Virus record (IMG/VR): IMGVR_UViG_3300005613_000005
Span: 91,213-155,212 of that record
Reading direction: 5' to 3' (one strand)
Length of the DNA stretch: 64,000 nt
DNA from: a virus
Taxonomy: Duplodnaviria; Heunggongvirae; Uroviricota; Caudoviricetes
Of this stretch, positions 2 through 48,523 are shown piece after piece (position 1 is the first letter of the stretch; each line of letters begins with the position of its first letter). Under the pieces are notes generated by a model. It ran no database searches, was not told where the DNA came from, and saw only the letters and a list, made by a program, of their open reading frames with translations. The translations under genes were made by a program, and so were the position numbers.

Positions 2-148
2 GTTAAACTCTGGAAATACATCACGGCTAACCGAAACGACGAGAAACACATGAAAAACGCGGTGCAGATAATCAACGTGCTCCACAACAAGTACAGTTAT
101 CAGTATCCAACACCGACATCAAGGAGGAGAAGGAGACGTAGATGGTAA
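2..148 (+). CDS. Hypothetical protein, 5' end outside window
   Basis: Open frame VKLWKYITANRNDEKH...RRRRRRRW* ending in TAA at 146-148, overlapping the next start. Confidence 0.6.
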   Translation, partial: VKLWKYITANRNDEKHMKNAVQIINVLHNKYSYQYPTPTSRRRRRRRW

Positions 149-525
149 GAAAAGTAAAGGACGAAGACATCAAAAAGTACGAGCCGATGATCGAGATGTA
201 CCTCAAACGGTTCGTCCAAAAAAACTGGAACGAGGCTAAACTCAACCAGTATGAAGATGAAGTTCAACTGGGCAATTCAGGTTGGACCATGAGAGACTTC
301 AGACAGCACCTCAAGACCGAGGTTTGTGTCGCACTCCAAAAATACAACCCTAATTTCATAAGCGACAAAACTAAAAAACCAGTGAAAGAATCGACGTTCG
401 TGTACCAACACTTGTTCAACAGGACCGGACAGCTCATGAAAAAACTCACCAAGAAGAGGTACGGTTACGGTATATGGACCAACAATCTGGAAGAAGTTCT
501 TTGGGAACGAGATTCGGAGGAATGA
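142..525 (+). CDS. Sigma70 region-2-like protein (no region 4)
   Basis: RDFRQHLKTEVCVALQKYNP...KESTFVYQHLFNRTGQLMK resembles sigma 2.2-2.4 (DLxQE..xALxKFDP...FSTYxxxxIxNxI); strong AGGAG RBS. Confidence 0.55.
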   Translation: MVRKVKDEDIKKYEPMIEMYLKRFVQKNWNEAKLNQYEDEVQLGNSGWTMRDFRQHLKTEVCVALQKYNPNFISDKTKKPVKESTFVYQHLFNRTGQLMKKLTKKRYGYGIWTNNLEEVLWERDSEE

Positions 526-1857: not shown

Positions 1858-2028
1858 GTGAGACGACCGTTCATAGGATTCTGGGGATGGTTCACGTTGT
1901 TCCTGATCAACGTTGGATTATACCATGTTCATCCCAGTAAGATATCATTGTTTACGGCTATATTTTGTATAGTGAATATGTGGCTGACAAAATACGCAGA
2001 AAATTTAACCGATAAACAGGAGAAATAA
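1858..2028 (+). CDS. Small membrane protein (56 aa, GTG start)
   Basis: Read by eye: MRRPFIGFWGWFTLFLINVGL...DKQEK*; fills the gap exactly. Confidence 0.5.
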   Translation: MRRPFIGFWGWFTLFLINVGLYHVHPSKISLFTAIFCIVNMWLTKYAENLTDKQEK

Positions 2029-4397: not shown

Positions 4398-4453
4398 TAT
4401 AAAGTATTGTTTGAACCGATCCGATAGATATACAGATCAAAATACGGAGAAAA

Positions 4454-4900
4454 ATGATGAGTGATCTTCCAGTTATCAAAGACGAGAATTTTATCGGTGA
4501 GTTTGAAACGATGAACCTCGATAAAATAAAGGACAAAACTTTTATGGTGGCAGTAGCAACCGGCGATCCGGAAAAAGCTCAATACTTACCAGGAACTTTG
4601 CACGGACCCTACGACTACGGTGAGATGCTCGATGAGGTAGGGCAGATGTACGTCGAGTTCCAACACCATGCTAAAGTCCTGATATGTGAGAAAGACCGCA
4701 CAAAACGAATGGAGTTCTTAGACGGTAACACTATAGATTATATAGAAGCTAACTTTGAGAACTTGATAATGTCAGAGATAATGGACGGCGTAGTCCTGAA
4801 CCCAGAATACACTTGCCAAGCCGGCATAAACCAAGCTGACGACGAAGAGGACTTTCGTCAGGGTAAAACAGAGACAGTCGATGTGGTGGAAGAAGAGTAA
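4454..4900 (+). CDS. Hypothetical acidic protein
   Basis: GGAG RBS, ORF track. Confidence 0.7.
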   Translation: MMSDLPVIKDENFIGEFETMNLDKIKDKTFMVAVATGDPEKAQYLPGTLHGPYDYGEMLDEVGQMYVEFQHHAKVLICEKDRTKRMEFLDGNTIDYIEANFENLIMSEIMDGVVLNPEYTCQAGINQADDEEDFRQGKTETVDVVEEE

Positions 4901-19992: not shown

Positions 19993-21558
19993 TTATTCCT
20001 CCTCGTTTTTAGAATACCCGTAATGGGGTAGATCACTTTGCGGCGTAGAAACATCAGGACGTTCGACTGATACCGCAACATCATCTTCTTCATCTTTTTC
20101 TTTTTTGTTTGCTATAATCAAGTTACGTCTTAGATCTTTCATATGCCCAGCTGCGCCAGTTATAGCCTTGTCTTTTCCAATATGCGTAGATATTATTCTA
20201 CCGTTGTGCTTAACTTGATACATCCCTTTATCCTGTTGAATAGCTATGGAACCATGTTCAGGATGATTAAAATTTCCTGTAGCCTCGTTATATTTCCAAT
20301 CACTTTTGCTCATGTTAGTTTTATCATCAAGATCTCTTTCATCCAACAGTTCTTTTAACTCTAAAAAATGTTCTTTCTCTTCGTCTATTATATGCTGCAG
20401 GACATTCTTTAATTTTTTATTGTCAGTGGCTTTTAAATGCGCTTCGTACAAGTTGATCGCGTCTAATTCAGCCATCATATCTTGGCGTAACGCGGCCAAT
20501 ATCTCTTCTTCTGTTAACTTATCAGGAGTAGCATACTGCGATGGATTCGATTCTGCTTTTTTAAGATTGCTCGGTTTTTTGGTAGTTCTGGCATCGCTGT
20601 CCTGCGCCGCCTTCTTACGGTTATCAAGTTTTAATTCAAGTTCTTTTTTCTTATATTCTACTTCGAGATCTTTAAGTTTATTAGCTTTATCATACTCCAG
20701 ATCAAGCATTCGTTTCTTGTGATCGTTGTCTATCTGACTAACCTGAGATTTTATCTTGGCACTGTCGTATTCTAAGTCGTTCATACGCTGTTGATGCTGT
20801 GCATTAGATTCTGCCTCTTTATCTTTAACGGCGGCATCTCGTTCTGCAGCCGCTTTATCAACTTCCATCTTGGCGTTGTTCATGTCTATCTTGGACTGAT
20901 CAACGGGGTCGACCTGCGGTTCAGCATGACCGTGTACTACATGAGCTATCTCCTCATCGCTAAGACCCTCATCGCGTAGTATCTGTATAAGTTGCTCCTC
21001 AGAATTTCCTTGATCTTCAGCTTCTTCAAGAGATAGTTCTTGTTCTCCGTTTTCCTCAAGCGGCAGTTCCTGTCCTTGAGAATTGCCTTCTGGCGGTGCT
21101 GCACCTACTTTCCCATCCGCGTTTTCATCATCTTTAACTTCTTCTATTTCTTGTGCTTCTTCTAGGTCCATTATGGCTTCTTCACTACTTAGCTTTTTCT
21201 TAAGCTCTTCCCAACGTTCCACGATGCTTTTTCCTACACATTCTTTCTCGCCTTCACCAGGTCCCATACCTCTACCGTGTGGACCAGTCTCATCACGAAC
21301 ATGTCCTCCTGGCCCTATCTTTTTGTCTTTCTTAGATTTCTTTTTATCATCTTCATCTTTTTCTTTTTTTTCGGCGACGCGCGTATCTGCATCATGCGAA
21401 CCACCGTTGGCCATGTGTCGTTTTCCTTCACTCTCTTCATCTTGGTTCAAGTGTTTGACAGACAGTGCGGGTTGTTTTTCGAGCTCTTCATTACCATAGT
21501 CATACTCTTGTTTGCCATCGGCTTCACGATCAATTCGTTTTTTATCTTGTTTTTTCAT
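19993..21558 (-). CDS. Acidic multidomain head protein with an encapsulin-type ferritin-like (EncFtn/Flp) domain
   Basis: LRQDMMAELDAINLYEAH...VLQHIIDEEKEHFLEL at ~20310-20553; rest is low-complexity or coiled coil. Confidence 0.75.
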   Translation of the reverse strand: MKKQDKKRIDREADGKQEYDYGNEELEKQPALSVKHLNQDEESEGKRHMANGGSHDADTRVAEKKEKDEDDKKKSKKDKKIGPGGHVRDETGPHGRGMGPGEGEKECVGKSIVERWEELKKKLSSEEAIMDLEEAQEIEEVKDDENADGKVGAAPPEGNSQGQELPLEENGEQELSLEEAEDQGNSEEQLIQILRDEGLSDEEIAHVVHGHAEPQVDPVDQSKIDMNNAKMEVDKAAAERDAAVKDKEAESNAQHQQRMNDLEYDSAKIKSQVSQIDNDHKKRMLDLEYDKANKLKDLEVEYKKKELELKLDNRKKAAQDSDARTTKKPSNLKKAESNPSQYATPDKLTEEEILAALRQDMMAELDAINLYEAHLKATDNKKLKNVLQHIIDEEKEHFLELKELLDERDLDDKTNMSKSDWKYNEATGNFNHPEHGSIAIQQDKGMYQVKHNGRIISTHIGKDKAITGAAGHMKDLRRNLIIANKKEKDEEDDVAVSVERPDVSTPQSDLPHYGYSKNEEE

Positions 21559-22191: not shown

Positions 22192-23022
22192 TTAAAACCA
22201 GTCCACCAAGAATGATCGTTGATAGTAAGTTTTAGCTGCTTCAGTTTGCGTAGCGCGCTGTTTCTCTAAATCAGCTAATCTATTTTGAAAAAATGCTGGA
22301 CCTAAGGTACTTACGCTTTGTGATGTACCATCGATTCCAATACTTGTAGAATTTTGTGGAAAAAGAATAGGTCCCAACATAGAAAGTGTTTTTATCCCTG
22401 CGATAGTTTCTATAAGTGCAGTAAGCACGGCCGGACATTGACCATCAGGAAAACCAGCCTCATAGGTAATTCTGATACCGCCGGGAAAATTGGTTATGCC
22501 GATAGCTCTCAACGCGTGAAACTGAGTTCCTGAAAATGCCGACAACAAAAAACCACTTAAAGATGTCCCAAACGCCGGCACCAGTTGTATTACTCCCTCT
22601 TGTGGCATCAAGTGCACGTGCTCTAGTGGAAAATCTACGAACGGTGTGTTTTCTATATCGTTGGTAAAAGACAACTGCACGGATAGTATAGAATACACGT
22701 TCGGATGATTTAACTTCAAATAGTTGTAGTTCCACGTAAAGTTATGACGTAAGTAATCGTGTTTTTCTTTAAATTTAACCGGTGTTATATATAAGTCTAA
22801 TAAGTGTTCAACTTCTGATATCGCTTCATTGATATAACGTTGAAGTTGCTCATCTGTTACCGAATCGTTCGTGAACGCTGACTGCATTGGTATACCAAAC
22901 AAAGCTCCTTGTCGTAAAGTAGTCGGTGTTGGAAGTGGATTAAACCTATCAACTTTAGGAGTTAGTTCCTCTTCTGACCAAGCAGGATTTAGAGTTATAT
23001 CTGGTGTTCTATCGATAGACAT
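22192..23022 (-). CDS. Head-tail adaptor / neck protein
   Basis: YINEAISEVEHLL, ITYEAGF..P, SIGIDG.SQS pattern of myovirus neck proteins. Confidence 0.7.
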   Translation of the reverse strand: MSIDRTPDITLNPAWSEEELTPKVDRFNPLPTPTTLRQGALFGIPMQSAFTNDSVTDEQLQRYINEAISEVEHLLDLYITPVKFKEKHDYLRHNFTWNYNYLKLNHPNVYSILSVQLSFTNDIENTPFVDFPLEHVHLMPQEGVIQLVPAFGTSLSGFLLSAFSGTQFHALRAIGITNFPGGIRITYEAGFPDGQCPAVLTALIETIAGIKTLSMLGPILFPQNSTSIGIDGTSQSVSTLGPAFFQNRLADLEKQRATQTEAAKTYYQRSFLVDWF

Positions 23023-24521
23023 TATTCTTCTCCTTCAGGCTTTTTAGGTTGCGCAACAGCTGCTTCAGTCGCACGTATATTAGCGGCGCGCCTCATAGCT
23101 TCTTTCGGCACTTCACCCGCAGCCACAACGTGGTCTCCCATCTTGCCAGCGATTCTACGCCCTGCATAAGTACTAAACTTAGTACCCATACCAGGTTTAT
23201 ATCTAGACAAGGCGTCCATTAGACCGTGAAAACCCGCCATGTGCAGATCATCAGATTCTACTCCTTCATGAACTTTACCAGCACCTTGTAATTTCTTACT
23301 GTGCAGATTGATCAACGGAGCATGTTCTGTTACAAACTGGTTTAATAATTTTTGATTAGCTGGATCTTTCAACAATCCAGACGCAGGAGTTTCTACTTTT
23401 TCTTTAACGGGTTGAGCACTAATGCCTTGTGAAGTTCTAGCAGCCATAACACGTTTATATCGATCTTGCTGTTCAGGTGATGCTCTCTGTATCGCTTCAC
23501 GAAGTTTGGGATTAGCTTCAGCAAACGCGGCCAACGGATCTTTCTTGATAGTAGTCTGCAATTGACCACCTTCTCCCTTAGTACCACCGGCTTGCTGAAC
23601 AGCTTCGGCCATCGTTGTCTCGACGGGCATACCAACGCCACCTCTCATTATATGCTGCATCTTCTCATGCAGGTCAGCATTAGCAGCCTCTTTTATATCT
23701 TTCGCAGAGCCATGCGCTTCTTTTATAGCTTGACGACCTTCAGCATGCTCTGGATTTTGTGCCTCATAATCTTTATGAAATTTCCTGATCGCACGTACTT
23801 TATCTATACCCTTTAAATCTTTTATAGATTCCATGAACTTCTGACGAGCATCATGAAAAGGAATAGCATAATTTTGAACAGCACTCAAGATCTTACCACG
23901 AACATGTTTTTCAGGACTTTTACTTGGATCAGCGGTCAGATAATCATGCTTGCGCGCGTTCTCTACCCATTCTTGCGCTAAGGGTTGCAATCTCTCTAAC
24001 ATCTTTGGTGACATCTCACTGGGATGTACGGTATGTAATAATGCTTCTTGAAGAGTTTTAGGACCTCCATGAGCTCCCGCAAGATATTCAGCTTCACGAT
24101 GAGTATAGCCTTCTTTCAGATATTTATCCATGGCCTCCTGATGCTCTGGAGAATACTTTTCTTGCGGTTGCCATTCTTTATATAAAGATCTCACAGGTTT
24201 TTTAGTCGGTTCTTTTTGTTTTGCTTCTTGTTCTTGAATAAAACGAGCAGCCTCATCTTCTTCATCGAGTTTCTCAGGATCAATGATCTGCATCCCTTCA
24301 AGATCTTCTTCACTAATATCGTCTTCATTAACCTTACTAAGCTGATCACGAAATTTCTGTAGCGTATCAAGTACGATGTCGGTCTTTTTCATTTTCTGAT
24401 ATATACTATTGACCAACGCCCAGTATCTATCACCGTCACCTTCGTTCAATGTTTTGTTGGCAGCTTGCTTAGCTTTCTGCCACCTTTTTTCATCAGCAGG
24501 AGTTTTAATAAAAACCGGCAT
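23022..24521 (-). CDS. Head-region protein: N-terminal ChaB-like helix hairpin and C-terminal sigma70 region 2 (FliA/WhiG-like)
   Basis: DEKRWQKAKQAA...YWALVNSIYQKM at N-terminus; DDLHMAGFHGLMDALSRYKPGMGTKFSTYAGRRIAGKMGDH at C-terminus. Confidence 0.75.
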   Translation of the reverse strand: MPVFIKTPADEKRWQKAKQAANKTLNEGDGDRYWALVNSIYQKMKKTDIVLDTLQKFRDQLSKVNEDDISEEDLEGMQIIDPEKLDEEDEAARFIQEQEAKQKEPTKKPVRSLYKEWQPQEKYSPEHQEAMDKYLKEGYTHREAEYLAGAHGGPKTLQEALLHTVHPSEMSPKMLERLQPLAQEWVENARKHDYLTADPSKSPEKHVRGKILSAVQNYAIPFHDARQKFMESIKDLKGIDKVRAIRKFHKDYEAQNPEHAEGRQAIKEAHGSAKDIKEAANADLHEKMQHIMRGGVGMPVETTMAEAVQQAGGTKGEGGQLQTTIKKDPLAAFAEANPKLREAIQRASPEQQDRYKRVMAARTSQGISAQPVKEKVETPASGLLKDPANQKLLNQFVTEHAPLINLHSKKLQGAGKVHEGVESDDLHMAGFHGLMDALSRYKPGMGTKFSTYAGRRIAGKMGDHVVAAGEVPKEAMRRAANIRATEAAVAQPKKPEGEE

Positions 24522-25459
24522 TACTTGCCCCCTTTAACTGGTGAACCTATGTTAAGCGGTTTAAAATCAGGCTTATCATGTATATGTTTAAAAGGATGCT
24601 GTTCACTTTTAACACCGCTGGTTTTTAACTTATATTGTTCGGGGTTTTCTTGCTCTAGTTTTTCTTGACGCGCAAACCAATTTTCAGCGTGCGGCTGATT
24701 GTAATAAGCATCTAGAGCTTCATGGTACCCTTTTATATCATGTGATTTACCATGTTTCATTATCGGATGATAGTCAAATTCATGGTGTTGAAAAGTTCCA
24801 GGAGATTTGAGCCCTTGATTTATATGAACGTATTTACCATTAACACTTGTTTCATGTGCCGGCCATGTTTTGTTGTGGCCATGCTTAGAGACTTCTTTCA
24901 TGTACGCAGGATCTTTTTCACTGGGAGCCTTAAACAACCAACTTACATCTTTCGTGCCATGAACTCGCGACAATCCCTTAGTTTTAGTTGTAAAATCACC
25001 GGACTTATATCGTCCACTTTGAACATGCGGATGATCAACTTCATATTGTTTCTCATATTTAGAACGTTCCCATGGTTTTATATCGACGTAGTTTAACGCA
25101 AGACCTCCCATAGAATGTTTCTGCGCTTGTTGCGCAACATGCATTATCTTAAGTGCCTGATGCATATGTTGATTAGCTAAACTTTCATTGCCAGCACGGT
25201 GTGCCGCAGCAGCGTGAGAAAAATGATGTCCCAGTGCTCCGCGAATCATCTCAGGATGATGTGGCATCATCTTCGTGGCGAACTCCGCCATAACAGGGGA
25301 CGGATTTCTGCCGACCGCTTCGTTGATGGCCATCTTCTCCAACGACTCTACCACCATCCCGGCGATTACATCGTCAGCCGCGCATTTTATCAAAGTTTGT
25401 AGTATTGGATCGTCTTCTACTTTACGAAGCAGAAGCGCCTTAAAACTCTCAAGTTTCAT
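24521..25459 (-). CDS. His-rich putative internal head protein
   Basis: 27 His in 312 aa by hand count; ESLEKMA motif; context. Confidence 0.6.
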   Translation of the reverse strand: MKLESFKALLLRKVEDDPILQTLIKCAADDVIAGMVVESLEKMAINEAVGRNPSPVMAEFATKMMPHHPEMIRGALGHHFSHAAAAHRAGNESLANQHMHQALKIMHVAQQAQKHSMGGLALNYVDIKPWERSKYEKQYEVDHPHVQSGRYKSGDFTTKTKGLSRVHGTKDVSWLFKAPSEKDPAYMKEVSKHGHNKTWPAHETSVNGKYVHINQGLKSPGTFQHHEFDYHPIMKHGKSHDIKGYHEALDAYYNQPHAENWFARQEKLEQENPEQYKLKTSGVKSEQHPFKHIHDKPDFKPLNIGSPVKGGK

Positions 25460-26135: not shown

Positions 26136-26209
26136 GGTATCTCCTTTATAAACCTCGTTATAAAGATATTATACCATAACCGACTATAGAAAAATCGGTT
26201 AAAAACTAG

Positions 26210-26854
26210 TTATTTAACTTCTTTAAAGTAACGGGTCGTCTCCCACAGATCGCGTACTTTTTCAAAATCTCCTTCTTCGATCTCCACGTCTCGCGTTATT
26301 GGTGATTCGATCAAGAATATCTGGTTCACGTTTGTATTCTCAGACACGTCCTTGATGTTGTCCAGATTGTCGTCCATGAACCCCTGGATATTGTATTGTT
26401 TGGATAAGTTTCTGATTTTCTTAGCTTTATCTTTCTCAAATATCAGTTCATGATAGGGTAAATCATTAGAGAATATCCACAAACGAGTTTGCTCCTTATA
26501 CTGTTCATCGCGAGCTGTCATCAAGATTATATGGTAACCTAACTTATCAAAAGCGACTAAAGCTTCTCTAGCGTGAGGTAAGAGTGGCATTATAGCGTAT
26601 ATACCGTGTGGCTCCCACTCTTTAAACGTGGCGAACAACTCTTCACCGGTAACACTGTTGCCCCTGACATCAGTAACGTTTAGATCGACAAAGTTGTAGG
26701 TTTTAATGTCGTTATGCGATACTGAAGTTCCTTTAAGTTTATTCTGAAGCCAAGTAAGCGTGTATAAAAAATCACCTATAACACCGTCCATGTCGATGAC
26801 GATAGCTTTTGGTTTAGTAACACGCTTTTTTCTTTTAGGGGCTTCACTGACCAT
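26210..26854 (-). CDS. HAD-family 5'(3')-deoxyribonucleotidase-like phosphatase
   Basis: IVIDMDGV (motif I), ILMTAR (motif II), K (motif III), FMDDNLDN (motif IV). Confidence 0.85.
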   Translation of the reverse strand: MVSEAPKRKKRVTKPKAIVIDMDGVIGDFLYTLTWLQNKLKGTSVSHNDIKTYNFVDLNVTDVRGNSVTGEELFATFKEWEPHGIYAIMPLLPHAREALVAFDKLGYHIILMTARDEQYKEQTRLWIFSNDLPYHELIFEKDKAKKIRNLSKQYNIQGFMDDNLDNIKDVSENTNVNQIFLIESPITRDVEIEEGDFEKVRDLWETTRYFKEVK

Positions 26855-28578
26855 TATTTAATTCTCCATTTACCTTTTATCACGTTAATTAACTGACGAG
26901 AACCATTAGGATAAACGATGCAAGAAGTATGCGCCCACGATGAAGGCCCCTGATTGTAGGATAATTTAAGTCTAGTAGACGTACCGACGACCCAAGCTCC
27001 TCTAAGTATCTCTGGTGAATGAGTATGGGCTGTAACAGATTGACCGTATGCGTTCTCCATACCGCGTGTGCTTCCTCTAGCACCATTAGCACCCTTATCG
27101 CCGTGGGCTCCTAACTGTATGCGAGCGATAACATAATCGTCATCTCGTCTCAACCACCTGATCTTCTCACCTCTTTTTAACCCTAACTGCTCACAACCAA
27201 ACTTTATAGGATCATGTCCGTCTAGAAATGCCCTGGCGAGATCTAGACTAAACCTGTGGTTGTACGCATCGTTCGCATATTTGCACTCACACAGGTACGA
27301 TTCTAAAAACTCATCGTGGTTCGATTTCACGACCACTATCTCCTCAGAGTTCCATTTAGTAAGATCATTGAGGTCTTTAACCATATTCACGAACTCATCG
27401 CGCAGGTTCAGATGTCCTTTTTGTGCTCTCTGTGATCTAAGGATGATGTTATGTTCTTCATGATGGTTGATCGACAAACCGTCAAAAAGATCGTGAAGTA
27501 TCAATCGTTTAGGTTTCAATAATTTAGTCATCTCTTTCCAACACTGAACGACCGTATCGTTGGTGGACCCTGAATGCCAATCACCAAGGACAAACGCTGC
27601 CGGTTCTATGTCAGCGACCGCTTCACTAGAATATTCTTTTCCAATATCAATAAAGTTACCATCTTTATCGGCCTGTATCTGTCTAAAATGATATATCTTA
27701 TCGTCCTCGATCTCAACTATTATAGCTCCCATGATATGATCGTGTTCTGCTATGACTGCGGTTCGGTCACTCATATAACGTTCTGAAACGTAGTTCGGTA
27801 GCGTGATAGCACCAGTAGTCATCACGGCGTGAGTTGACCTATTGTTACCGGTAGCAACAAACTTCAAACGCTGTTTAGGAGAAGCATATATGAACGTGCC
27901 ATCACGTTGTCCTATCCTGGTCAACGAAGTGATCGGATCGATATGTTTAGCACTCAGTTTGATCGTATTGATATGTATGTTACTGTTTAAACTGACGTTC
28001 GCGACCACTATGTTCTCTATAGGAATTTTAGGATCTACGAAACCAAATTTGTTAACGCTAGCAGCAGGATCAGAAGCTACCAACACCAGAAGTTCAGCGT
28101 TATGAATTTTGCTATAGTTCTGAATGCTAGCTAAAAAATTAGCGTCAACCGAACAACCACTAACAGCAGTAGTAACTATAAAACGCTTAGCATCTTTGAT
28201 CTTCGTTCTAAGACGCTGTATAGCTTTAGGGTTAAATATCGAATCGTCCAATATACTTTTAAAATTCTTAGGAAATTTCTTGCGTGCGGCAACCTTCAAT
28301 CTACCCAACGACCCATGATGGTGAGAAACCATATCCTTAGTATATACCGACATGTCCGTGAACTCGTTCATTGTAGGATATCGTTTTAATTTAGCACATA
28401 CATCAGCGTATTTTTTGACCATCTGTTCTTTTTTGCTGATTTTCTTGTTGTGTTTTTTCTTGGTTGGTTTTTTCTTGATTGATTTTTTCTTTTCTGCGAT
28501 CTCGTTAATTATCTTTTTAATTTTTTCTCTGGGCACTGTTGGTTTTCTCTCAGTTGTTTTTATTGTTCTTTTAGCCAT
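26854..28578 (-). CDS. Calcineurin-like metallophosphoesterase with N-terminal basic/HTH region
   Basis: GDWH, HDLFDG, SNHD, HGD, AHTH motifs; KLKRYPTMNEF...HGSL HTH-like repeat. Confidence 0.8.
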   Translation of the reverse strand: MAKRTIKTTERKPTVPREKIKKIINEIAEKKKSIKKKPTKKKHNKKISKKEQMVKKYADVCAKLKRYPTMNEFTDMSVYTKDMVSHHHGSLGRLKVAARKKFPKNFKSILDDSIFNPKAIQRLRTKIKDAKRFIVTTAVSGCSVDANFLASIQNYSKIHNAELLVLVASDPAASVNKFGFVDPKIPIENIVVANVSLNSNIHINTIKLSAKHIDPITSLTRIGQRDGTFIYASPKQRLKFVATGNNRSTHAVMTTGAITLPNYVSERYMSDRTAVIAEHDHIMGAIIVEIEDDKIYHFRQIQADKDGNFIDIGKEYSSEAVADIEPAAFVLGDWHSGSTNDTVVQCWKEMTKLLKPKRLILHDLFDGLSINHHEEHNIILRSQRAQKGHLNLRDEFVNMVKDLNDLTKWNSEEIVVVKSNHDEFLESYLCECKYANDAYNHRFSLDLARAFLDGHDPIKFGCEQLGLKRGEKIRWLRRDDDYVIARIQLGAHGDKGANGARGSTRGMENAYGQSVTAHTHSPEILRGAWVVGTSTRLKLSYNQGPSSWAHTSCIVYPNGSRQLINVIKGKWRIK

Positions 28579-29504: not shown

Positions 29505-29895
29505 CCCATCTCTCCCTTATAGCGTCCCACAAGTGAAACAAGTTCAACTTGACCGGCAACATCTGATCTTTGTGTATGATCCCCAGTTTAAAGTAAACGT
29601 ACAGTATATCTTCTATGACATCCGTGCTGTAATCGTAACGATGCTGCCAATACCATCTCCACCAATATAGACCAAATGAATAATGAGGGCCATCGTACCA
29701 GGTATATCTGAAACCGATCAAACGAGTTTCAGTACCGGTATGCATCATCGACCATTTACCGCCGCGAAGCATGGTATCAGTATGAAATCTCCAACCGCCG
29801 CGCTCTGTCAATATGCATATAATACTTCCTAACGAAGTCTTCCACCAGAACCACTCTTGTATCTTACTTATTAATGTTCGGATCTTCTGAATCAT
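29482..29895 (-). CDS. Trp/Tyr-rich hypothetical protein
   Basis: ORF track. Confidence 0.6.
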   Translation of the reverse strand: MIQKIRTLISKIQEWFWWKTSLGSIICILTERGGWRFHTDTMLRGGKWSMMHTGTETRLIGFRYTWYDGPHYSFGLYWWRWYWQHRYDYSTDVIEDILYVYFKLGIIHKDQMLPVKLNLFHLWDAIRERWDEPRIKE

Positions 29896-30076
29896 CAGAC
29901 TGCTTCTTCAACTCTTTTAAAACGTGAGTATTGACCATAGTTTGAAGTTTGTTGGTCTTCTTATCTTTACGTATCATTATCATGGTCCTATATTGAAAAT
30001 AGCATGCTATGCAGAACGTCACGCACGATATGAACGACAACACCAGCATCGATATGTGGATCGTGTAAATACTCAT
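29864..30076 (-). CDS. Small membrane protein, probably leaderless
   Basis: TGGTATAAT at 30083-30091, 6 nt before ATG; one TM helix. Confidence 0.65.
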   Translation of the reverse strand: MSIYTIHISMLVLSFISCVTFCIACYFQYRTMIMIRKDKKTNKLQTMVNTHVLKELKKQSDDSEDPNINK

Positions 30077-33020: not shown

Positions 33021-33875
33021 CTATTGGTCGAATATTATGTAATCAGCTATAGCACCATAAGTAGGATGCAAGATCGTAAAATTTGCTGACCGATTACACG
33101 TAGCCTGTACTATGGTCGCTATTTTTTTGTCAGGAGATCGATTGTTCAGACGCGCCGTTAATCCCAGTTTATATTCGGCATGAAAGTTACCGACTATGAT
33201 AAAAAACTTATTTCGACTGATATCTATTAAAGAATGATAGGCCATCGTATCGTCCCACACTGAATGCGCCGCAAAAAAATTCTTTGTCGCACCGTCAAGC
33301 ATATCGTGCTTCATGTATTTCATGGTACTTTTGAAGCGCTTGTAGTACAAGTCACCACCGACACTAAAGTCTTCTGGCAATAATTTCTTTTCCTGCTCGC
33401 TCAACGTGCATAAACCCTGCATGGCAATCTTATGCACTAACGCGTTGGGAGCATTGATGCCATACACGCGTCCACCAGAAGTTACCGCAATCTCTATCAG
33501 CGGTTCATAATACGCGAACGACGTTTTTCCCCATTGCATCGCTTTTAAAAAATCCGCCTCGTTCTTACCACCGTTCAAAAATAAATCTAAAGTTCCTTGA
33601 TCTATCCAGGATACGAATTCTAGGCCGACGTCGATCGATCCATGTTTGGCTACTTCGCTGATTACATCCAGTTGATTTTTGTGATGGACAGCGCTGTCAT
33701 GCTTCTCACCAAAAACTATGATATCATAGTTTAACAGGTCCTTTACGAGAGTCTGTCTATCAATAAATTCACCACGATCTGTCGAGAAAATATTACGCAT
33801 GCTATTACGATCCGCCTCAGTAATCAAACATAAAAGCATCACTAAAATAGAATATCGCAAGATGCTTACCCACAT
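33021..33875 (-). CDS. chaN: ChaN-family haem-binding/uptake protein (EreA/Tiki superfamily) with signal peptide
   Basis: DIIVFGEKHD, VGLEF, FL..MQW...YYEPLIE, VYGINAP, WDDTMA, VGNFHAEY; N-terminal hydrophobic leader containing Cys. Confidence 0.85.
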   Translation of the reverse strand: MWVSILRYSILVMLLCLITEADRNSMRNIFSTDRGEFIDRQTLVKDLLNYDIIVFGEKHDSAVHHKNQLDVISEVAKHGSIDVGLEFVSWIDQGTLDLFLNGGKNEADFLKAMQWGKTSFAYYEPLIEIAVTSGGRVYGINAPNALVHKIAMQGLCTLSEQEKKLLPEDFSVGGDLYYKRFKSTMKYMKHDMLDGATKNFFAAHSVWDDTMAYHSLIDISRNKFFIIVGNFHAEYKLGLTARLNNRSPDKKIATIVQATCNRSANFTILHPTYGAIADYIIFDQ

Positions 33876-33954: not shown

Positions 33955-35421
33955 TTATTTTCCAACGTTCTTTAAGAAACAGTTGAATCTTGGTGTGTAA
34001 ACAAACAGAGCTCCATAAAGTACGATGGCGAATTCAAGAGCGGTTGACACGATAGCAAAATTGATTTTGCTAAGAGGTGCTAACTGTTTGAACTTCATGC
34101 ATTCTGCACTCATGTCGAGTAAGAAAGCTTCACCAAGGCCAGGAGATTTCTGTCCTGAGTCCACGAGAGTAAGATCAGCAGGATCATATTTGAAATTTCC
34201 TACGAACTTCTCTGTTCCAACAGCTCCGCCAGAAGCAGAACGGTAAACTTTAAAGTACTTGGTGTTAGCAGGTACGTTAGCTACTGTCAGGATCAGAGAT
34301 CCGTTAGCATCTGGGTTACCGTTTACGGTTGACTGAATAGGAGCACTTTCACCAAAGTCATTGACTGCAGTGATTTTGTACTGGTAAACACCACCGGAAG
34401 TAAGCTGACCAACAGGACTGACAGCGCCACCAGTGTTGTGTCCACAAGCAAAAGTGCCAAGCGCAGGAGCGTTAGCGTTAACGGCCTGTGTCCTATACTG
34501 AGCTCTAGGACGTAAGAAAAGGTTAGGTTTAAGATCTACAGTACCAGCAGTAGTTGTGATCTTAGATACATCGTAGCCAACTGCTTGACCAGCGAGACCC
34601 GGAGCACTTCTAAACTGTGGATAGAACTGTTTTACGAACGCACTGATAACAACTGGTTCAGCGTGTAATTGATTTGGAGCACCGAAGTTTTCCAGAGCAA
34701 TAACAGCCAGTCTTTCAATGTCGTCCTGCTGCATAACAGCACCAGCGAGATCCTGTCCGATTGATGACCAATCGCCAAAACCTTCAAAGTCTTTAGATTT
34801 GTGCTGAGCGTCATCGTCGCCTTTTAACAGCTGCTGAAGCAGACCGTTCATCTTGATAGAATTGGCTGGAATATCACTAACAGCACCGTTCATAGCACCA
34901 GAAGCAATGTTCATGTAGTGAGCATGTCCCCAATAAAGTTCTCTTTCGATATGCTTTAAGAGATGCATTGTTCCTTCTTTTGCTTGCTGAGCTACGATAT
35001 CGCCAACAGTTGTTCTTACTAGTGTCATCTGATGAGATACTTTTCTGCGTGTTCCAAAGAAAACGATTCTTTGTCCATCACGAATGTAAGTGCTGTCTTC
35101 CTGTTGAGGAGCACCACCTTCACCCATGTATGGGGAAGCGTCAGAACCATAACCAATCAAACGATTGTACTGTTCAAACAGATTGTAAGCTTTATCAATG
35201 CTTACTGCTGGCCAGAATTTTAAGTTTTTCATGTCAAAAGTCACGGACTTGAGTGTTGACTCAAGAGATTCGGCTTGAAGCACACCACCATAAGTTAGGT
35301 CAGTGGGTTTCCCAGCTCCACCGTAACCGGCTGTGATAGCCTTGTTAAGAGCTTCAATGTCTTCAGGAGTAACGAGTCCGTTTTCAATTCCCTGTAGGAT
35401 TTGATTCATTTGTTCGTTCAT
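33955..35421 (-). CDS. Major capsid protein (K/A511/SPO1/phiYS40-type) with Ig-like insertion
   Basis: K-AITAGYG...LQAESLE, FEQYNRL..YG, LYWG, YQYKITAVN..GESAP, KFKQLAPLSK. Confidence 0.92.
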   Translation of the reverse strand: MNEQMNQILQGIENGLVTPEDIEALNKAITAGYGGAGKPTDLTYGGVLQAESLESTLKSVTFDMKNLKFWPAVSIDKAYNLFEQYNRLIGYGSDASPYMGEGGAPQQEDSTYIRDGQRIVFFGTRRKVSHQMTLVRTTVGDIVAQQAKEGTMHLLKHIERELYWGHAHYMNIASGAMNGAVSDIPANSIKMNGLLQQLLKGDDDAQHKSKDFEGFGDWSSIGQDLAGAVMQQDDIERLAVIALENFGAPNQLHAEPVVISAFVKQFYPQFRSAPGLAGQAVGYDVSKITTTAGTVDLKPNLFLRPRAQYRTQAVNANAPALGTFACGHNTGGAVSPVGQLTSGGVYQYKITAVNDFGESAPIQSTVNGNPDANGSLILTVANVPANTKYFKVYRSASGGAVGTEKFVGNFKYDPADLTLVDSGQKSPGLGEAFLLDMSAECMKFKQLAPLSKINFAIVSTALEFAIVLYGALFVYTPRFNCFLKNVGK

Positions 35422-37526: not shown

Positions 37527-38495
37527 CTATATTAACTCGAAAATTTTAGCGAACGGAAAGGATTTATTGCAGTGACGACACTTGACCTGATTGCTCATGT
37601 ATACCTGTTCTTTACCACAACTAGGACATGTTATATACTTGAAATCGTCTTCTAACGCTTCACGTTGGAGTACCGTACCGCCAGTACGATTGGTGGGTGC
37701 ACTAACTCCGCCATAACCAGCGCATAATGCTTTAACTAATTTATTGATTTTATTTATATTTTTATCAATCTTATGTTCTAGTGCTTTCTCAACGATATCT
37801 TTAGGATCAATGTTTGGAAAGCATTTTTCGATGCCAAGATCGTTTACTATCTTTTGAATTTTTTCGACGTTGGTTTTTATCTTGTTCGCACTCGCGTTCC
37901 TCGTTATGTGTCGAAACGACGGTACATCTGTCTTTGCCAAGTGCATCACCGATCGTATGAGTTCCATGTCAGCTTTCTCTTGATCCGGATTAGCATTTTT
38001 TTGCAGGTTGATAGGCTCTGCTAAGGTCGCCTGGTTGGCCGGCGTAAAAGTAAGCGCGACAGAATGGATCTTGGTTCGAGCCAGTAATGAAGGATCTTTG
38101 ATACCGCGCTGTATAACTCCCCCTTCAACTGAAGTTTTTAACTTAAGTGGAGAATCTTCCTTATGAATGTTCCTTAATATAGCAGCGGCGGCTTTCGCGT
38201 TCTGATGATCATCGTTGTATAAATATCCCTTACAATAGATATAAGGTGTCTTAACTTTCTCCCAATAATACCTATGCCTATCATTCTCGCAATCTTCTTC
38301 CTTAAATATCTTCTTAGCTTCTGTTATACGACCTATAGAATTAAAAAATCCTTTACCATGGTTATCATTCCAACGACCTTTTCCAACTTCTAATTCACTT
38401 ATATCGGCACCTTCGATCGACAGCATCTCGCCTTGCGAATCTCTCAATTGTGAGCCCGCTATACAGTCCAACCACATTTTATCATTTTTAGGCAT
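37527..38495 (-). CDS. Prohead protease with C-terminal capsid-like arm and zinc ribbon
   Basis: WNDNH (His), LKTSVEGG (Ser), ALTFTPANQAT; position upstream of scaffold/MCP; start at ATG 38495 after GGAG. Confidence 0.85.
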   Translation of the reverse strand: MPKNDKMWLDCIAGSQLRDSQGEMLSIEGADISELEVGKGRWNDNHGKGFFNSIGRITEAKKIFKEEDCENDRHRYYWEKVKTPYIYCKGYLYNDDHQNAKAAAAILRNIHKEDSPLKLKTSVEGGVIQRGIKDPSLLARTKIHSVALTFTPANQATLAEPINLQKNANPDQEKADMELIRSVMHLAKTDVPSFRHITRNASANKIKTNVEKIQKIVNDLGIEKCFPNIDPKDIVEKALEHKIDKNINKINKLVKALCAGYGGVSAPTNRTGGTVLQREALEDDFKYITCPSCGKEQVYMSNQVKCRHCNKSFPFAKIFELI

Positions 38496-38514
38496 AATAA
38501 GACTCCTAAAAGTC

Positions 38515-38523
38515 ATTATACCA
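38515..38523 (-). promoter_or_regulatory. Extended -10 promoter TGGTATAAT of the head operon
   Basis: Matches TGnTATAAT; no clear -35. Confidence 0.55.
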
Positions 38524-44404: not shown

Positions 44405-47400
44405 TCAAACAGACCAGAGAAATCCCCCATCACCACCTATCTCATCCTCTTCATCTTCTTCACTGTCTAATTCATTTGCAGTACCAATTTTGCCGACTTT
44501 GGACGTATCAACTTCTTCACTGAACGGTATACCCATACTTTCTGCAAATTCACCGGCCGACGGTGTACGATAAAACTGATTGTTAGCATACACACCAACA
44601 CGATGATCAGATTCTGCTGCTAGCGCTGTAAGCATAGTTGAGTGCCCTAAAAGCATGTTAAGCGGATATCGTATAGCATCAAGCCAATGATTAAAAGCAT
44701 CTTCAGGTTGATCGGTAACTTCACCAGCCGTATTTAATTTAAAGTGATACAAGCTAAACTCTTCTATCAACGACTGACATGTCTCTTTAGCCACGTGAAA
44801 TTTAGTATCTTCAGTACCAGGAACTCGTAATAACCGTTTTATTATCTGCACGCCTGTCATAATCTCAGGCTTAACGTAGTTCGCCACCGGTAATCCTATC
44901 TTCTTCATCTCTTCCATAGAACCAGGAACAGCGGCGTCTGGAAAGTATAGTTGACATTTGTAAGCGTGATGATACTTAGTTTTAACATAATTTGCCCAAG
45001 TAGGATCACTTACATAACACATACCATCTGCGCGAACAGCGTATACGTTCTCTCTCTTGTCCAAGAAAAAGTACACCACCGTACTCGGTGCTGACCATCC
45101 CCAGTCGATCCCCGCGTAGCACGGCAACTTCAACTGGTGGCATTTCTTAACGAATATATCGTGAGTACATTCACCGGGATATTCTACACCAGTCAACTTC
45201 TTCCACATCTCGTTCCACGTGTTAACGTGTACTCTCTCATCAAATTCCCTGTATATGATACCTTCTACTGAGGGTTTAAGATTCATGAGCTGAGCCAATG
45301 CCCAATCTGGACCTTTTCTAACCTTATTCATTATGTCTTGTATCGGCTTCAACATCGGTGATTTTGAAGTTTGTTTTTTAGCGTCTCCCAAGCATATAGC
45401 AGCTGCTGGACATTTCCTACACTTAGATCCCGGAAACGTATATCGCATGAACTCTTTCTGTTTTTGCTTACTTTTTAACTTGTATTCTTCTTCTGTTAAT
45501 ACTATGAAATCTTCTTGAAGTACCCATAGATCAGTCTCATCAGTACCTGATCTATCATCAGGACATCTTTCAGAAAACTCCCAGGCTGTCCATTTTCTTA
45601 CCGTACGCCCTTCAGTATCAGCGTTTTCCATCTGCTGATTCATCAGTCCATATCGTGACTTGCGCGTAGATATACCAACACGAAGCGCGTGTTTAGTTCC
45701 TTTTGAATCCAGCATACCAGAAATTTCACCAAAGGCCTTAACTCCTTCGCCTGATACTGTATCTATCTCGTCGACCACTACCATGGGAACGTGAGGACCA
45801 TTACATTGTAAACTATTAATACCATTAACTAAAAACGAATGATCAGAGCGATTATTTCCTTCAACTTCAATGTCTATTAAGCGCTGTTTACCTAAAAATT
45901 CAATATTTACTACAGATAAACTATCTTTACTCCATTTTCTAAACCATTGTTTCCACTGTTTATTACTAAATTGTCCATCGGTCACTTCTTTCAATAAAAC
46001 GCTACAACCCGTCTTACTAATATCAATTTCATCTCCCATATCAAATGAATATAATTTCTCAGGAACAATATCTGTTGATATTTTATAGTACATGGTTGGA
46101 TGAACGTAACGCTGTACAATGTCACGCATAGTTCGTGTATCACTGCTGTTAAAACGAATTACGTTATATTTATGCGAATTACGAACATGAGCTGATTTTA
46201 AATTAAATTTACTGTGAAACATATTCAACAGTTTATTACATTCTTTATCAGTTAAAGAACAAGTCGATAACTCTAATTGTTGACCAGCAATACCATCATC
46301 TTGAATCCAAAAAGCCAATGCAATCTCATCTATGTAATCAACCAATTGATCAGTAATTATTTTTTTATTTATTCGTTGATCGGTAAAAAGTTCAACTAAA
46401 AATTGCAACTCTTCAGTTGATTCTGTAATTAATTCTTTGATATTGCTTCCATAACCAGATTTTTTATCTCTAATTTGATTAACTTTAATATGTTGCTCAA
46501 TAATTTCGCGGCAATAATTAAAGTACTCATGCTGCTTGATCGAATGTCCTTTATATAATCTGGCATTGCCAATTTGCTTACGATCTTTTATTTTAATACT
46601 TAAATGAGCATCTCCCAACATCATACCGATTAAAGCAGAACGCCACTGTTGCTGATTAAAATTAGGTTTATTCCAACGATATTTAGTTTTGCTACTATTC
46701 TTCTTAAACTGCGGAGCGCGTACAATTTTCGTATTGTAATTAATATCGCATAGTCGTTGCCAACCAAAACGCGTCAATATTTTATTGTCATAACCACCAG
46801 TACTTTCTAAACCATCTTCTAATGTAATCTTATAAGTATCAGAATATTTAGTCCATTTGTCGATAACTTTTCGATATGTGCTTTGTGGAAATTCACCTCG
46901 CATATAATCCCAAGATGCTATATAATCGCCAATTCTTACAGAATCAATGGAATGATATCCTCCACGTTTTGTTTTTACTATTGATTGTGGGTCAACACAA
47001 GCTTTCAGCGTACAAGGAAGTACCTCTAACGATACAGTCTGACCATTAACATTAAACAACGACTTACTCATGTTAGCTTTATTTAATATTCGCTTGTCTT
47101 CTGCAAGGTTAGAAGGGGTAACAAGCGTTTTCAAACGCCGATTGTACAAGAAATTTTTAATATAATCATAACAGCGAGTTGCCTGCGCCATAACTGCGCC
47201 AACGTGAACAATATCCCGTTGATCATGCAAGACGATCATCATCTCAACTATGGCCATCCCTAAAGTTTTTCCCGAACCTCTTCCAGCAACCAATAACAAC
47301 TCGTTGATCATCTCCGGATTCTTGTTTAAAACCGCAATCTGATATATCTCCCATATAGCATTGAAAGGGTTAGTATCTGCATACCTAGAAACCGTACAGT

Positions 47401-47524
47401 CAGGAAGATGAATGTCTAGATGAAACTTGATCCATTTCTTGAATTCTGCTTTAGTTTTGCAGGGTTTTAATAATAATTTCTTACGTTGTTCGTAAGTTAA
47501 GTTCTGAACTTTCTTCTTTGCCAT
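44405..47524 (-). CDS. terL: Terminase large subunit interrupted by an intein
   Basis: Walker A GRGSGKT, Walker B VVVDEID, nuclease GIDWG and HWLDAIRY. Confidence 0.93.
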   Translation of the reverse strand: MAKKKVQNLTYEQRKKLLLKPCKTKAEFKKWIKFHLDIHLPDCTVSRYADTNPFNAIWEIYQIAVLNKNPEMINELLLVAGRGSGKTLGMAIVEMMIVLHDQRDIVHVGAVMAQATRCYDYIKNFLYNRRLKTLVTPSNLAEDKRILNKANMSKSLFNVNGQTVSLEVLPCTLKACVDPQSIVKTKRGGYHSIDSVRIGDYIASWDYMRGEFPQSTYRKVIDKWTKYSDTYKITLEDGLESTGGYDNKILTRFGWQRLCDINYNTKIVRAPQFKKNSSKTKYRWNKPNFNQQQWRSALIGMMLGDAHLSIKIKDRKQIGNARLYKGHSIKQHEYFNYCREIIEQHIKVNQIRDKKSGYGSNIKELITESTEELQFLVELFTDQRINKKIITDQLVDYIDEIALAFWIQDDGIAGQQLELSTCSLTDKECNKLLNMFHSKFNLKSAHVRNSHKYNVIRFNSSDTRTMRDIVQRYVHPTMYYKISTDIVPEKLYSFDMGDEIDISKTGCSVLLKEVTDGQFSNKQWKQWFRKWSKDSLSVVNIEFLGKQRLIDIEVEGNNRSDHSFLVNGINSLQCNGPHVPMVVVDEIDTVSGEGVKAFGEISGMLDSKGTKHALRVGISTRKSRYGLMNQQMENADTEGRTVRKWTAWEFSERCPDDRSGTDETDLWVLQEDFIVLTEEEYKLKSKQKQKEFMRYTFPGSKCRKCPAAAICLGDAKKQTSKSPMLKPIQDIMNKVRKGPDWALAQLMNLKPSVEGIIYREFDERVHVNTWNEMWKKLTGVEYPGECTHDIFVKKCHQLKLPCYAGIDWGWSAPSTVVYFFLDKRENVYAVRADGMCYVSDPTWANYVKTKYHHAYKCQLYFPDAAVPGSMEEMKKIGLPVANYVKPEIMTGVQIIKRLLRVPGTEDTKFHVAKETCQSLIEEFSLYHFKLNTAGEVTDQPEDAFNHWLDAIRYPLNMLLGHSTMLTALAAESDHRVGVYANNQFYRTPSAGEFAESMGIPFSEEVDTSKVGKIGTANELDSEEDEEDEIGGDGGFLWSV
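45806..46999 (-). mobile_element. 398-aa intein with LAGLIDADG endonuclease, terminal Gln
   Basis: TLKA|CVDPQSIV...LIDIEVEG...SFLVNGINSLQ|CNGP; GMMLGDAH and FWIQDDG motifs; AT-rich. Confidence 0.9.
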
Positions 47525-48129
47525 TACTCATCGTACTCAATATCGTCCAACGATATCTCTTTAATATCATGTTGTTCTAAAGATTGTTTTTTGTCAGATG
47601 GCGCTAGTGCGTTGAAAAGCGGTGAACTCTTTGCCCTAGAGTTAGGAGTAGCGCCAGAAACTATCTTATATAGTGTCTCGATAACTTCTTTATATTCCTT
47701 GATTGTTTCTATTGTTAAATCAGGTTTCACATTGTTATCAGGATCAGCGACATATTTGCGCATAGCACTCATTCGCTGTGCATTGTTTACAGATAATAAA
47801 GTAGTTAAAAAGTCAACTTGCTCAATGACTGACTTAACAACTTTAGCTTGTACTCTATCGCGCAAACTATGCTGCATCTTATCTCTGTCATGACACCATC
47901 CAGCTAGAGCGGCCGTCAATATTATCTTTCCCATCTCATATTGCGGAAATTGTTGGTGTATTTCTACAAACGTATGGCCTATCAAAAACATCTCTAATAA
48001 CTTTAAAGATTCCGGTTCCTTGATTCGACCTGCTGTCTTATGTTTTCTCAGATATTTTTCCGCTAATTTAATCTCTTGTTGCGTTAAGCTATAACGCTCA
48101 TGTTCCGTTAAGTTTCTTTTTAGAGCCAT
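47524..48129 (-). CDS. Probable terminase small subunit
   Basis: HTH-like N-terminus, immediately upstream of terL. Confidence 0.55.
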   Translation of the reverse strand: MALKRNLTEHERYSLTQQEIKLAEKYLRKHKTAGRIKEPESLKLLEMFLIGHTFVEIHQQFPQYEMGKIILTAALAGWCHDRDKMQHSLRDRVQAKVVKSVIEQVDFLTTLLSVNNAQRMSAMRKYVADPDNNVKPDLTIETIKEYKEVIETLYKIVSGATPNSRAKSSPLFNALAPSDKKQSLEQHDIKEISLDDIEYDE

Positions 48130-48523
48130 TGACCTTTTCCCTTAATTGTTCCCACGCCGGATTATCACGGATGACGTTAATAGTCTGCATTATTCTAATC
48201 TTACTAATACCTTTATACTTAGCTATTTCAGGTACTGTAAAGTTTATGACCATTAGATATATGATAGATCGTTCAAACTCAGTAAAGTTCAACAAAAATT
48301 CATGTATATCGTAACCATCTTTTATATAATCGCGCAAGAATTGCTTGCTATTTTTATGTTCTTTGGAATGTAAACGCAAATACTCTAAGAAGTCGTCAAA
48401 GGATAAAGTAGAATTATTCTCAAGATAATAGACCCAAAGATCCTGTCGATAATCTTCATTGCTGGTCAAATTATTTATCGTTTGAATTATCGATGTCGAT
48501 GCCTTTTTCATCTCCAAAACCAT
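48098..48523 (-). CDS. Compact ECF-sigma-like / sigma4-HTH transcription regulator
   Basis: EDYRQDLWVYYL (region-2-like) and FTEFERSIIYL..FTVPEIAKYKGIS (region-4 HTH); start uncertain. Confidence 0.55.
   Translation of the reverse strand: MVLEMKKASTSIIQTINNLTSNEDYRQDLWVYYLENNSTLSFDDFLEYLRLHSKEHKNSKQFLRDYIKDGYDIHEFLLNFTEFERSIIYLMVINFTVPEIAKYKGISKIRIMQTINVIRDNPAWEQLREKVNGSKKKLNGT

Follow-up and report, generated by a model that had tools for sequence, protein, structure and literature searches.

A candidate sigma-2-only specificity module for -35-less promoters, fused to a morphogenesis-operon protein of a tailed phage

Why should a gene that abuts the head-tail adaptor gene of a tailed phage end in a domain of a sigma factor? 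The question is raised by w499, an open reading frame (ORF) of 499 aa in a 64,000-nt stretch of Caudoviricetes DNA (hereafter "the window", positions 91,213 to 155,212 of IMG/VR record IMGVR_UViG_3300005613_000005, a complete virus record of 176,243 bp). We find that the last ~115 residues of w499 are a genuine FliA/WhiG-type sigma-2 domain together with the start of region 3.0. The reading that we prefer, and to which we assign a probability of roughly 0.5, is that these residues form a functional promoter-specificity module consisting of sigma-2 only, fused to a protein of a morphogenesis operon and serving a transcription system specific to one group of phages. The module would bind the core of the host RNA polymerase (RNAP) via region 2.2 and, judging from the residues that it retains and from their co-variation with the promoters, would recognise and help melt the -10-like box of aCCGATCCGAt promoters, which lack a -35 box and from which about 12 non-structural genes of the opposite strand would be transcribed. 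Sister phages would make this module as a free-standing protein of ~120-160 aa from a host-type TATAAT promoter. In this phage it has become fused behind the conserved core of w499, a core of uncharacterised function that always lies, with its partner w312, immediately upstream of the adaptor gene. The reading is built on the identity of the domain, the architecture of its family, the alternation of free and fused forms, a promoter class and a co-variation, all of which are observed; from these we infer RNAP binding, promoter reading and a benefit of the fusion.

The sigma-2 domain, its family and its free forms

The identification of the domain is supported by sequence and structure alike. 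Pfam family PF04542 (Sigma70_r2) matches residues 417-465 of w499 with 26.7 bits, above the gathering cut-off of 24, and the score is 29.8 bits when residues 380-499 are searched alone. In a scan of the genome, where the match scored 30.4 bits, w499 was the sole carrier of a sigma-2 of either the FliA type or the family type. A phmmer search of Protein Data Bank (PDB) sequences aligned residues 391-483, which span regions 2.1-2.4 plus the first helix of region 3.0, with FliA (9wsm, 2.5e-10; 6pmi, 5.7e-9) and WhiG (6pfj, 2.3e-8). In the AlphaFold2 model of w499 the predicted local distance difference test score (pLDDT) is 83-96 across residues 385-470. The fold superposes on the N-terminal domain of SigE with Z 9.8 and a root-mean-square deviation (rmsd) of 2.4 Å over 79 aa, and on sigma-28 in an initiation complex (6pmj_F) with Z 8.7 and rmsd 2.8 Å over 85 aa at 32% identity; Foldseek gave a probability of 1.00 to WhiG. 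The region 2.2 motif D-L-H-M-A-G-F-H-G-L-M is present and conserved, and the region 2.3 aromatic residue that stacks on the flipped -11A (Y430 in sigma-70, Y76 in sigma-28) is Y452 here and a histidine in a second fused clade of the family. The module would bind the beta' clamp helices through region 2.2; a complex prediction with residues 235-335 of E. coli beta' as a stand-in for the host, run without controls, scored 0.30 against a mark of 0.32 and speaks neither for nor against binding.

The domain is not part of a larger sigma factor. No Pfam match to region 3 or region 4 was found in w499, where 29 residues follow the domain, so that the region 3 body, the 3.2 finger and region 4 are all missing. 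The protein is thus not a complete group 3 sigma factor of the FliA/WhiG kind, having neither a region 3 domain nor the helix-turn-helix (HTH) of region 4. An initial annotation of this DNA, made from its letters and ORFs, had read the C-terminus as a FliA/WhiG-type region 2 without region 4, and on both counts our searches agree with it.

One other protein of the phage resembles a piece of a sigma factor. A stand-alone sigma-4-like HTH protein of 119 aa scores 22.9-23.5 bits with the Pfam region 4 model (cut-off 24.1) and is the only such match in the genome. It is 49-62% identical across relatives, its gene is always found just upstream of the prohead protease gene, and it is a possible second half of a split sigma. 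Two further ORFs were considered as sigma factors: the 127-aa ORF at 142-525 (plus strand) reached just 11-12 bits over 29 residues of region 2.1 of the family module and has no Pfam or PDB sigma match, so that it is at most a possible, very divergent sigma-2-like protein, and the ORF at 48098-48523 has no sigma match whatever. A beta-like RNAP subunit was not detected in the phage, nor was a T7-like RNAP, in a search whose control was uninformative.

The domain belongs to a family of modular proteins. A first search returned 23 metagenomic homologs of w499, which share a plan of N-terminal module (N-module), acidic linker, core, optional sigma-2 and short tail, with the N-module present in 15 of the 23. 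An exhaustive profile search with the core only returned ~199 clusters, which constitute an uncharacterised family. When 169 of these were inspected for accessory modules, sigma-2 was found in 67 (40%), the N-module in 47, both in 34 and neither in 89; the two modules co-occur with an odds ratio of 7, a value uncorrected for phylogeny. In six clusters w312 is fused in frame ahead of the core, and a Pfam search of the long family members revealed no other informative fusion. Pfam misses the sigma-2 module in most relatives, and some of its core-binding positions deviate from the sigma-70 consensus, but a profile of 11 modules from the other fused clade still finds FliA at 2.5e-8. Across clades region 2.2 (LH-x-AG-x-HGL) is the best-conserved part of the module, while regions 2.3 and 2.4 vary.

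The module also occurs by itself. Genomes with free forms were reached through a shared 16-mer, CTGACACTGCTACGCC. Three complete relatives (G006-G008) have an intact w312-core-adaptor block whose core is without sigma-2, which is encoded instead by a separate gene of 123-159 aa, 40-125 kb away in a conserved non-structural cassette, and preceded by its own TATAAT-type promoter, TAGTATAAT or TGGTATAAT. Four further records carry the module in small ORFs (156-164 aa in G020, G023 and G031, and within a 231-aa frame in G025), and three further records hold fused forms; across relatives the free-standing forms measure 114-164 aa. In the present phage (G000) and in G003, both with the fused form, the w499 homolog alone carries the module. 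The free-standing occurrence indicates that the module is a functional unit by itself, and its presence in close relatives as a free gene, with a host-type promoter and in a non-structural region, indicates that it works without the virion.

Free and fused forms have been interconverted more than once. The window's module shares 48-56% identity with its free counterparts in G006, G007 and G010 but 20-30% with the module of the other fused clade, and in a tree the other fused clade is split from the free forms and the window's clade with support of 97/97. The junction differs as well, with sigma-2 placed after an SPEQ..R-x-K-R-V motif here and before that motif in the other fused clade. The grouping with free forms, taken with the different junction, implies that sigma-2 and the core were joined or separated at least twice, and this recurrence is Rosetta-stone evidence suggesting that the two work together.

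Two promoter classes and the residues that would read them

A de novo screen of upstream regions yielded two classes of promoter. The first, TGnTATAAT, has 10 sites compared with ~0.5 in shuffled sequences, and many of these extended -10 promoters (TGGTATAAT or TAGTATAAT) lie exactly 6 nt before the ATG, for example upstream of the genes at 33021-33875 and 29864-30076. This spacing implies leaderless mRNAs; a Shine-Dalgarno sequence is nonetheless found at ~47% of genes. The initial annotation had proposed TGnTATAAT as the target of the w499 sigma-2. The sites are, however, found unchanged, at identical positions, in relatives with a homolog that has no sigma-2, and promoters of this class also drive the free sigma-2 genes. 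They are therefore most likely read by a host sigma, and we abandon that assignment.

The second class, aCCGATCCGAt, is phage-specific and has no -35 box. CCGATCC is the most enriched upstream 7-mer, occurring in 8 regions against 0.41 expected (1 antisense), and 12 of its 13 copies in the genome are on the plus strand. When variants are included there are ~12 CCGA-box sites, which lie 18-38 nt upstream of the Shine-Dalgarno sequence and precede orphan ORFs and genes for a nucleotidyltransferase-like protein, a subtilase, a MoxR ATPase and an SLT-like protein. No conserved -35 element was found at these sites, and no TAAA -35 at any fixed spacing. The 3' half of the box, TCCGATAA, matches the sigma-28 -10 box, GCCGATAA. 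A scan of viral contigs with a 14-mer motif gave only single chance matches.

The 16-mer CTGACACTGCTACGCC is a hallmark of the phage group, with 67 loci (L160-L226) on ~40 contigs; in G000 it is found at 41219, 41886, 42514 and 57631, all outside the window. A box beginning with CCGA follows it after 13-17 or 24-26 nt, two spacings that differ by about one helical turn; the end of this box is either ...CGAT(A/T) or ...CTATA/TTATA. The 16-mer may be the site read by the 119-aa sigma-4-like protein, which would give a split sigma.

The structure of the Pseudomonas (Pa) sigma-28 open complex allows the residues of the module to be related to the box. In that complex Y76 stacks on the flipped -11A, R80 (the equivalent of W434) contacts -12G, with R80A leaving 15% activity, and D87 contacts -13C/-12G; the template strand is contacted by R82 and D93 and by H100, R101, R104 and R148 of sigma-3, and the holoenzyme normally needs a -35 TAAA (PMC12784957). 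Residues were mapped with an HMMER alignment in which the chain numbering equals the published numbering plus 5, a correspondence verified on 14 residues. Y452, R456 and D463 of w499 are the retained equivalents of Y76, R80 and D87, and R477 is retained also. A comparison that covered about 15 genomes revealed that the residue at the D87 position varies with the box: D (G000, G006, G007, the G008 group and G010) accompanies a CGA-type box, that is, one with a second CGA, whereas T or Q (G001-G005, G015, G022, G025 and G026) accompanies a box ending in ...CTATA, ...TTATA or ...GTATA. The -12 base, G or T, thus co-varies with the D87-equivalent residue, D or T/Q, and the change in the box falls exactly on the base that D87 and R80 read. 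Exact CCGATCCGAT is at background level in G001-G005, an observation that pointed to the TAT-type box. The proposal of a sigma-2-only factor for -35-less promoters, as first annotated, can be kept for the CCGA box, for which the retained residues and the co-variation argue, and not for TGnTATAAT.

Several observations weigh against the module as reader of the CCGA box. The equivalents of R82, D93, H100 and R104 are lost in w499, and that of R148 would lie beyond the end of the protein; as the missing sigma-3 contacts stabilise the sigma-28 open complex, a lone sigma-2 may need co-factors, like T4 gp55. The co-variation mostly tracks two clades and so represents few independent events, which makes it suggestive, and G020 is an exception to it, with K at the D87 position and a CGA box. 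A second promoter class that is statistically enriched was not found in G003, whose genome is complete and carries a fused module. The module is encoded in an operon with structural genes, an odd site for a factor driving genes that look early. Finally, a host that possesses FliA could in principle use it to read CGAT boxes.

The rest of w499 and its surroundings

The coordinates of w499, its parts and the associated features are collected in Table 1. The N-module ends in ...YQKMKK/TD (a slash marks the boundary here and below), and M-x-K-[S/T/A] is kept in all 15 first-search homologs that have the module, so the K-T site at the end of the N-terminus was correctly annotated. The accompanying description of the N-terminus as ChaB-like is not supported, since residues 1-60 match no Pfam family at E<=10 and a search for ChaB (PF06150) among PDB sequences at E<=10 gave nothing. 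We found no paralog of the N-module in the genome; a search for short proteins sharing it gave one fragment only, and its look-alikes in an atlas are small viral proteins with scores <0.9, to be taken as leads only. Fold searches for the core with Foldseek (PDB, BFVD), VIA-align (wide) and the atlas yielded nothing beyond sigma factors, by way of sigma-2, and generic helical hairpins (Z<=7.8). Because the core was searched as part of the whole protein and not folded alone, we make no claim of a new fold.

Table 1. Positions in the window of w499, its parts, and the genes and promoter elements discussed in the text.
Feature	Position	Strand	Remarks
w499, 499-aa ORF	23022..24521	-	Intact frame: N-module, acidic linker, helical core, linker, sigma-2 module
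N-module, aa 1-47, two basic helices	24381..24521	-	Ends at conserved boundary between M-x-K and S/T/A
Acidic disordered linker, aa 48-110, isoelectric point 4.2	24192..24380	-	From model and sequence
Conserved helical core, aa 111-362	23436..24191	-	Invariant QxxGGxKxExG...DP; no known fold matched
FliA/WhiG-type sigma-2 domain, aa 385-470	23112..23369	-	Y452, R456, D463 = Pa sigma-28 Y76, R80, D87
Region 3.0-like helix and C-terminal tail, aa 471-499	23025..23111	-	From alignment to FliA and model
Head-tail adaptor, SPO1 gp6.3-like	22192..23022	-	Translationally coupled, downstream of w499
w312, His-rich partner of w499	24521..25459	-	Coupled by TAATG; fused in frame to core in six clusters
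Extended -10 promoter TGGTATAAT	26168..26176	-	After a hairpin; heads w220-w312-w499-adaptor operon
Stand-alone sigma-4-like HTH protein, 119 aa	38579..38938	-	Adjoins protease gene; conserved
CCGATCCGAT box	4416..4425	+	In-window member of -35-less class, upstream of gene 4454-4900; proposed sigma-2 target
Variant box CCGATAAAC	2009..2017	+	Upstream of SLT-like gene 2031-2732

Within the operon the genes are tightly coupled. The w499 gene overlaps both of its neighbours as TAATG, its start with the stop of w312 and its stop with the adaptor start, and its final codons double as the adaptor's Shine-Dalgarno sequence (GAAGGAG, then TAATG). At 23022-23045 (minus strand) the conserved PEGG/PEGE tail of the family is coded by this Shine-Dalgarno sequence, and the conservation of the tail may act at the DNA level. 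The promoter element TGGTATAAT that heads the operon is also present in relatives without sigma-2. The model of w312 is confident (pLDDT 79.8), and its invariant positions are HH..H, W-E, PH and H-x-F-D-x-HP; its best structural match reaches a Z of only 4.5, and the single structural relative given by a fold search is an uncharacterised protein of an uncultured phage. In family searches of the window's proteins, no known family was matched by w312 or w220. The adaptor matches phrog_772 at 2.9e-24 and also phrog_442, and tblastn finds SPO1 gp6.3. The gene had been described as lying between the neck gene and other head proteins, which is right for the adaptor side and is not supported upstream, where w312 and w220 match no family and the interval up to the MCP gene also holds non-structural genes.

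The head genes of the record are SPO1-type. Its major capsid protein (MCP) is 32-33% identical to MCPs of the SPO1 group, and it also codes for a portal, a protease and a terminase with a LAGLIDADG insert. Gene order across ~20 related loci runs from the sigma-4-like gene through protease, scaffold, MCP, a variable stretch, w312, w499 and the adaptor to w521; identity is ~70% for MCP, ~50% for the adaptor and 26-37% for w499, and w499, w312 and w521 all evolve fast (26-40% identity). The variable MCP-adaptor interval contains genes for non-structural proteins, namely RtcB, an A1-like protein and a HAD phosphatase.

Several further observations concern these neighbours. The C-terminus of the protease, KLVK/ALCAGYGG..., copies the MCP segment ALNK/AITAGYGG... 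that follows a variable N-arm (37527-38516 and 33955-35421, both minus strand). The A1-like gene of the variable interval (26854-28578, minus strand), which only some relatives have, codes for a T5 A1-like "DNA transfer protein" with a metallophosphoesterase (phrog_1745 at 1.9e-97). Downstream of the adaptor a 521-aa low-complexity protein (19993-21558, minus strand) has an EncFtn-like ferritin domain at residues 355-405 (Pfam 29.4 bits, cut-off 27). The large terminase (44405-47524, minus strand; 1039 aa) carries its homing-endonuclease-like LAGLIDADG insert at residues 295-484. In Myxococcus phage Mx1 (OR576727; L027 9773-16079) two large enzymes within the structural region, a 1479-aa "NUDIX hydrolase" and a 619-aa "kinase", come after an adaptor homolog; a homolog of w499 was not found in Mx1, though the adaptor is present. 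The window contains no tRNAs.

Alternative readings, known systems and meaning

The initial annotation had w499 packaged in the virion, and this is possible though doubtful: the protein would be loaded into the prohead, its N-module cut between K46 and T47 by the prohead protease, and the remainder ejected with the DNA, so that sigma-2 acts at once on host RNAP. Packaging of this kind adds a delivery route to the specificity module and does not replace it. It would suit the w312-w499-adaptor block, which is invariant in ~20 relatives with TAATG coupling on both sides, and the fast evolution of w499, w312 and w521 beside a 70%-identical MCP; internal and ejection proteins of virions often evolve fast. 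The scaffold is enriched in the motif [LM]-x-K/[SA], with 7 sites (P about 1e-7), boundaries in the MCP and the protease are marked by it, and the N-module, with its own conserved M-x-K before S, T or A, is associated with sigma-2-fused forms (the odds ratio of 7 given above). Fusion of sigma-2 to this core appears to have happened at least twice, and the box-driven genes look early. The phage is, however, known here from genes alone, with no cultured relative found and a best MCP match of 33%, and structure searches show the core and w312 to be like no known virion protein. Further, w499 has no strict protease motif and its two loose motifs equal chance expectation, non-structural genes are tolerated in the MCP-adaptor interval both here and in Mx1, and the free-standing versions act without packaging. 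The operon promoter is host-type, as for non-structural genes, so that early synthesis is possible.

An extension of the packaging proposal, which we consider unlikely, makes the fusion itself a delivery device. Sigma-2 ejected with the DNA would pre-load the next host, the N-module would be a cleavable targeting sequence or pro-sequence, and the second half of a split sigma would be the 119-aa sigma-4-like protein, with the 16-mer as the site that it reads. That such a device arose in this lineage and, independently, in a second one we likewise hold to be unlikely.

A quite improbable alternative is that the module is a decoy or anchor for the RNAP core, either blocking the beta' clamp helices (host sigma shut-off) or tethering RNAP or transcribed DNA to the machinery that assembles the head or packages the genome. 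The strong conservation of region 2.2 beside variable regions 2.3 and 2.4 and the placement of the gene in a morphogenesis operon would fit such a role, for which T4 provides a precedent: gp55 interacts with the terminase gp17, and packaging is ~100-fold poorer in gp55-deficient extracts (PMC3012670). A decoy or anchor leaves unexplained why the DNA-reading Y, R and D are retained and co-vary with the box, and why free versions are found in non-structural cassettes with their own promoters.

Still less probable is that host FliA reads the CGAT boxes and that the module has an indirect effect, for instance as a competitor of FliA or through titration of the anti-sigma factor FlgM. The core of the box equals the sigma-28 -10 box, and a structure-based alignment gives the module 32% identity to FliA. 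The boxes, however, have no TAAA -35 at a fixed spacing, and the TAT-type boxes of the sister clades would be unreadable by host FliA, yet the module is kept there regardless. Contigs of related phages (L028-L031; MCP 68-72% identical) were binned into four metagenome-assembled genomes of non-flagellated Bacteroidota. Shine-Dalgarno use of 47% and TATAAT promoters fit Bacteroidota poorly, and this assignment may represent mis-binning. We give hardly any credence to an exaptation of the sigma-2 fold as a generic helical interaction domain with no role at RNAP, which could account for the failure of Pfam to detect the module in most relatives and for core-binding positions unlike the sigma-70 consensus, but is at odds with a family profile that still finds FliA at 2.5e-8 and with functional residues that are retained and co-vary with the promoter box.

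As a sigma-2-only specificity module, the C-terminus of w499 can be compared with several known systems. With FliA/sigma-28 (9WSM, 9WSF, 6PMI) and WhiG (6PFJ) it shares the sigma-2 fold (E 2.5e-10; 32% identity over 85 residues), the equivalents of Y76, R80 and D87, an R in place of the tryptophan W434, as in group 3 sigmas, and a proposed target box with CCGAT(A/T)(A/T), near GCCGATAA. It differs in having no region 3 body, 3.2 finger, region 4 or H100, R104 and R148 contacts, in proposed target promoters that lack a -35 TAAA, and in its position behind a 380-aa unrelated protein. T4 gp55 is likewise a single sigma-2-like domain paired with a -35-less promoter class, a pairing proposed for w499 from comparison of sequences; it is a late factor that directs host RNAP together with gp33 and the gp45 clamp. 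A physical link to morphogenesis exists for gp55 via gp17 (PMC3012670). In contrast to the fused module, gp55 is free-standing and clamp-dependent, and no sequence relationship between the two was seen, the PHROG match of the w499 module being the generic sigma family phrog_351.

The sigma factors known from phages are free products of early or middle genes. The SPO1 cascade of gp28 and gp33/gp34 resembles the system proposed here in combining SPO1-type head and adaptor genes with a phage sigma-like factor that reprograms host RNAP. Each SPO1 factor is encoded separately among the early or middle genes and keeps a region-4-like part, whereas the module here is sigma-2 only and is carried on a morphogenesis-operon protein. 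Only if w499 is packaged would it resemble the virion RNAPs of N4, phiKZ and AR9 in being transcription machinery delivered with the DNA. Those are whole polymerases, established by proteomics and biochemistry, while w499 offers a sigma domain only, known from genes.

What would be new is a minimal sigma-2-only factor, present as a free gene or as a C-terminal fusion, with a -35-less box that co-varies with it. Such a module would be a natural compact system in which to ask how little of a sigma factor suffices for promoter recognition, and the pairing of D or T at the D87-equivalent position with G or T at -12 is a candidate specificity code. Should the protein prove to be virion-borne, it would represent a new route of transcription takeover by a phage and the first virion-borne sigma subunit. 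For the phages themselves, the sigma-2 module gives a first hint of function for the family of ~199 uncharacterised clusters and for w312, its partner.

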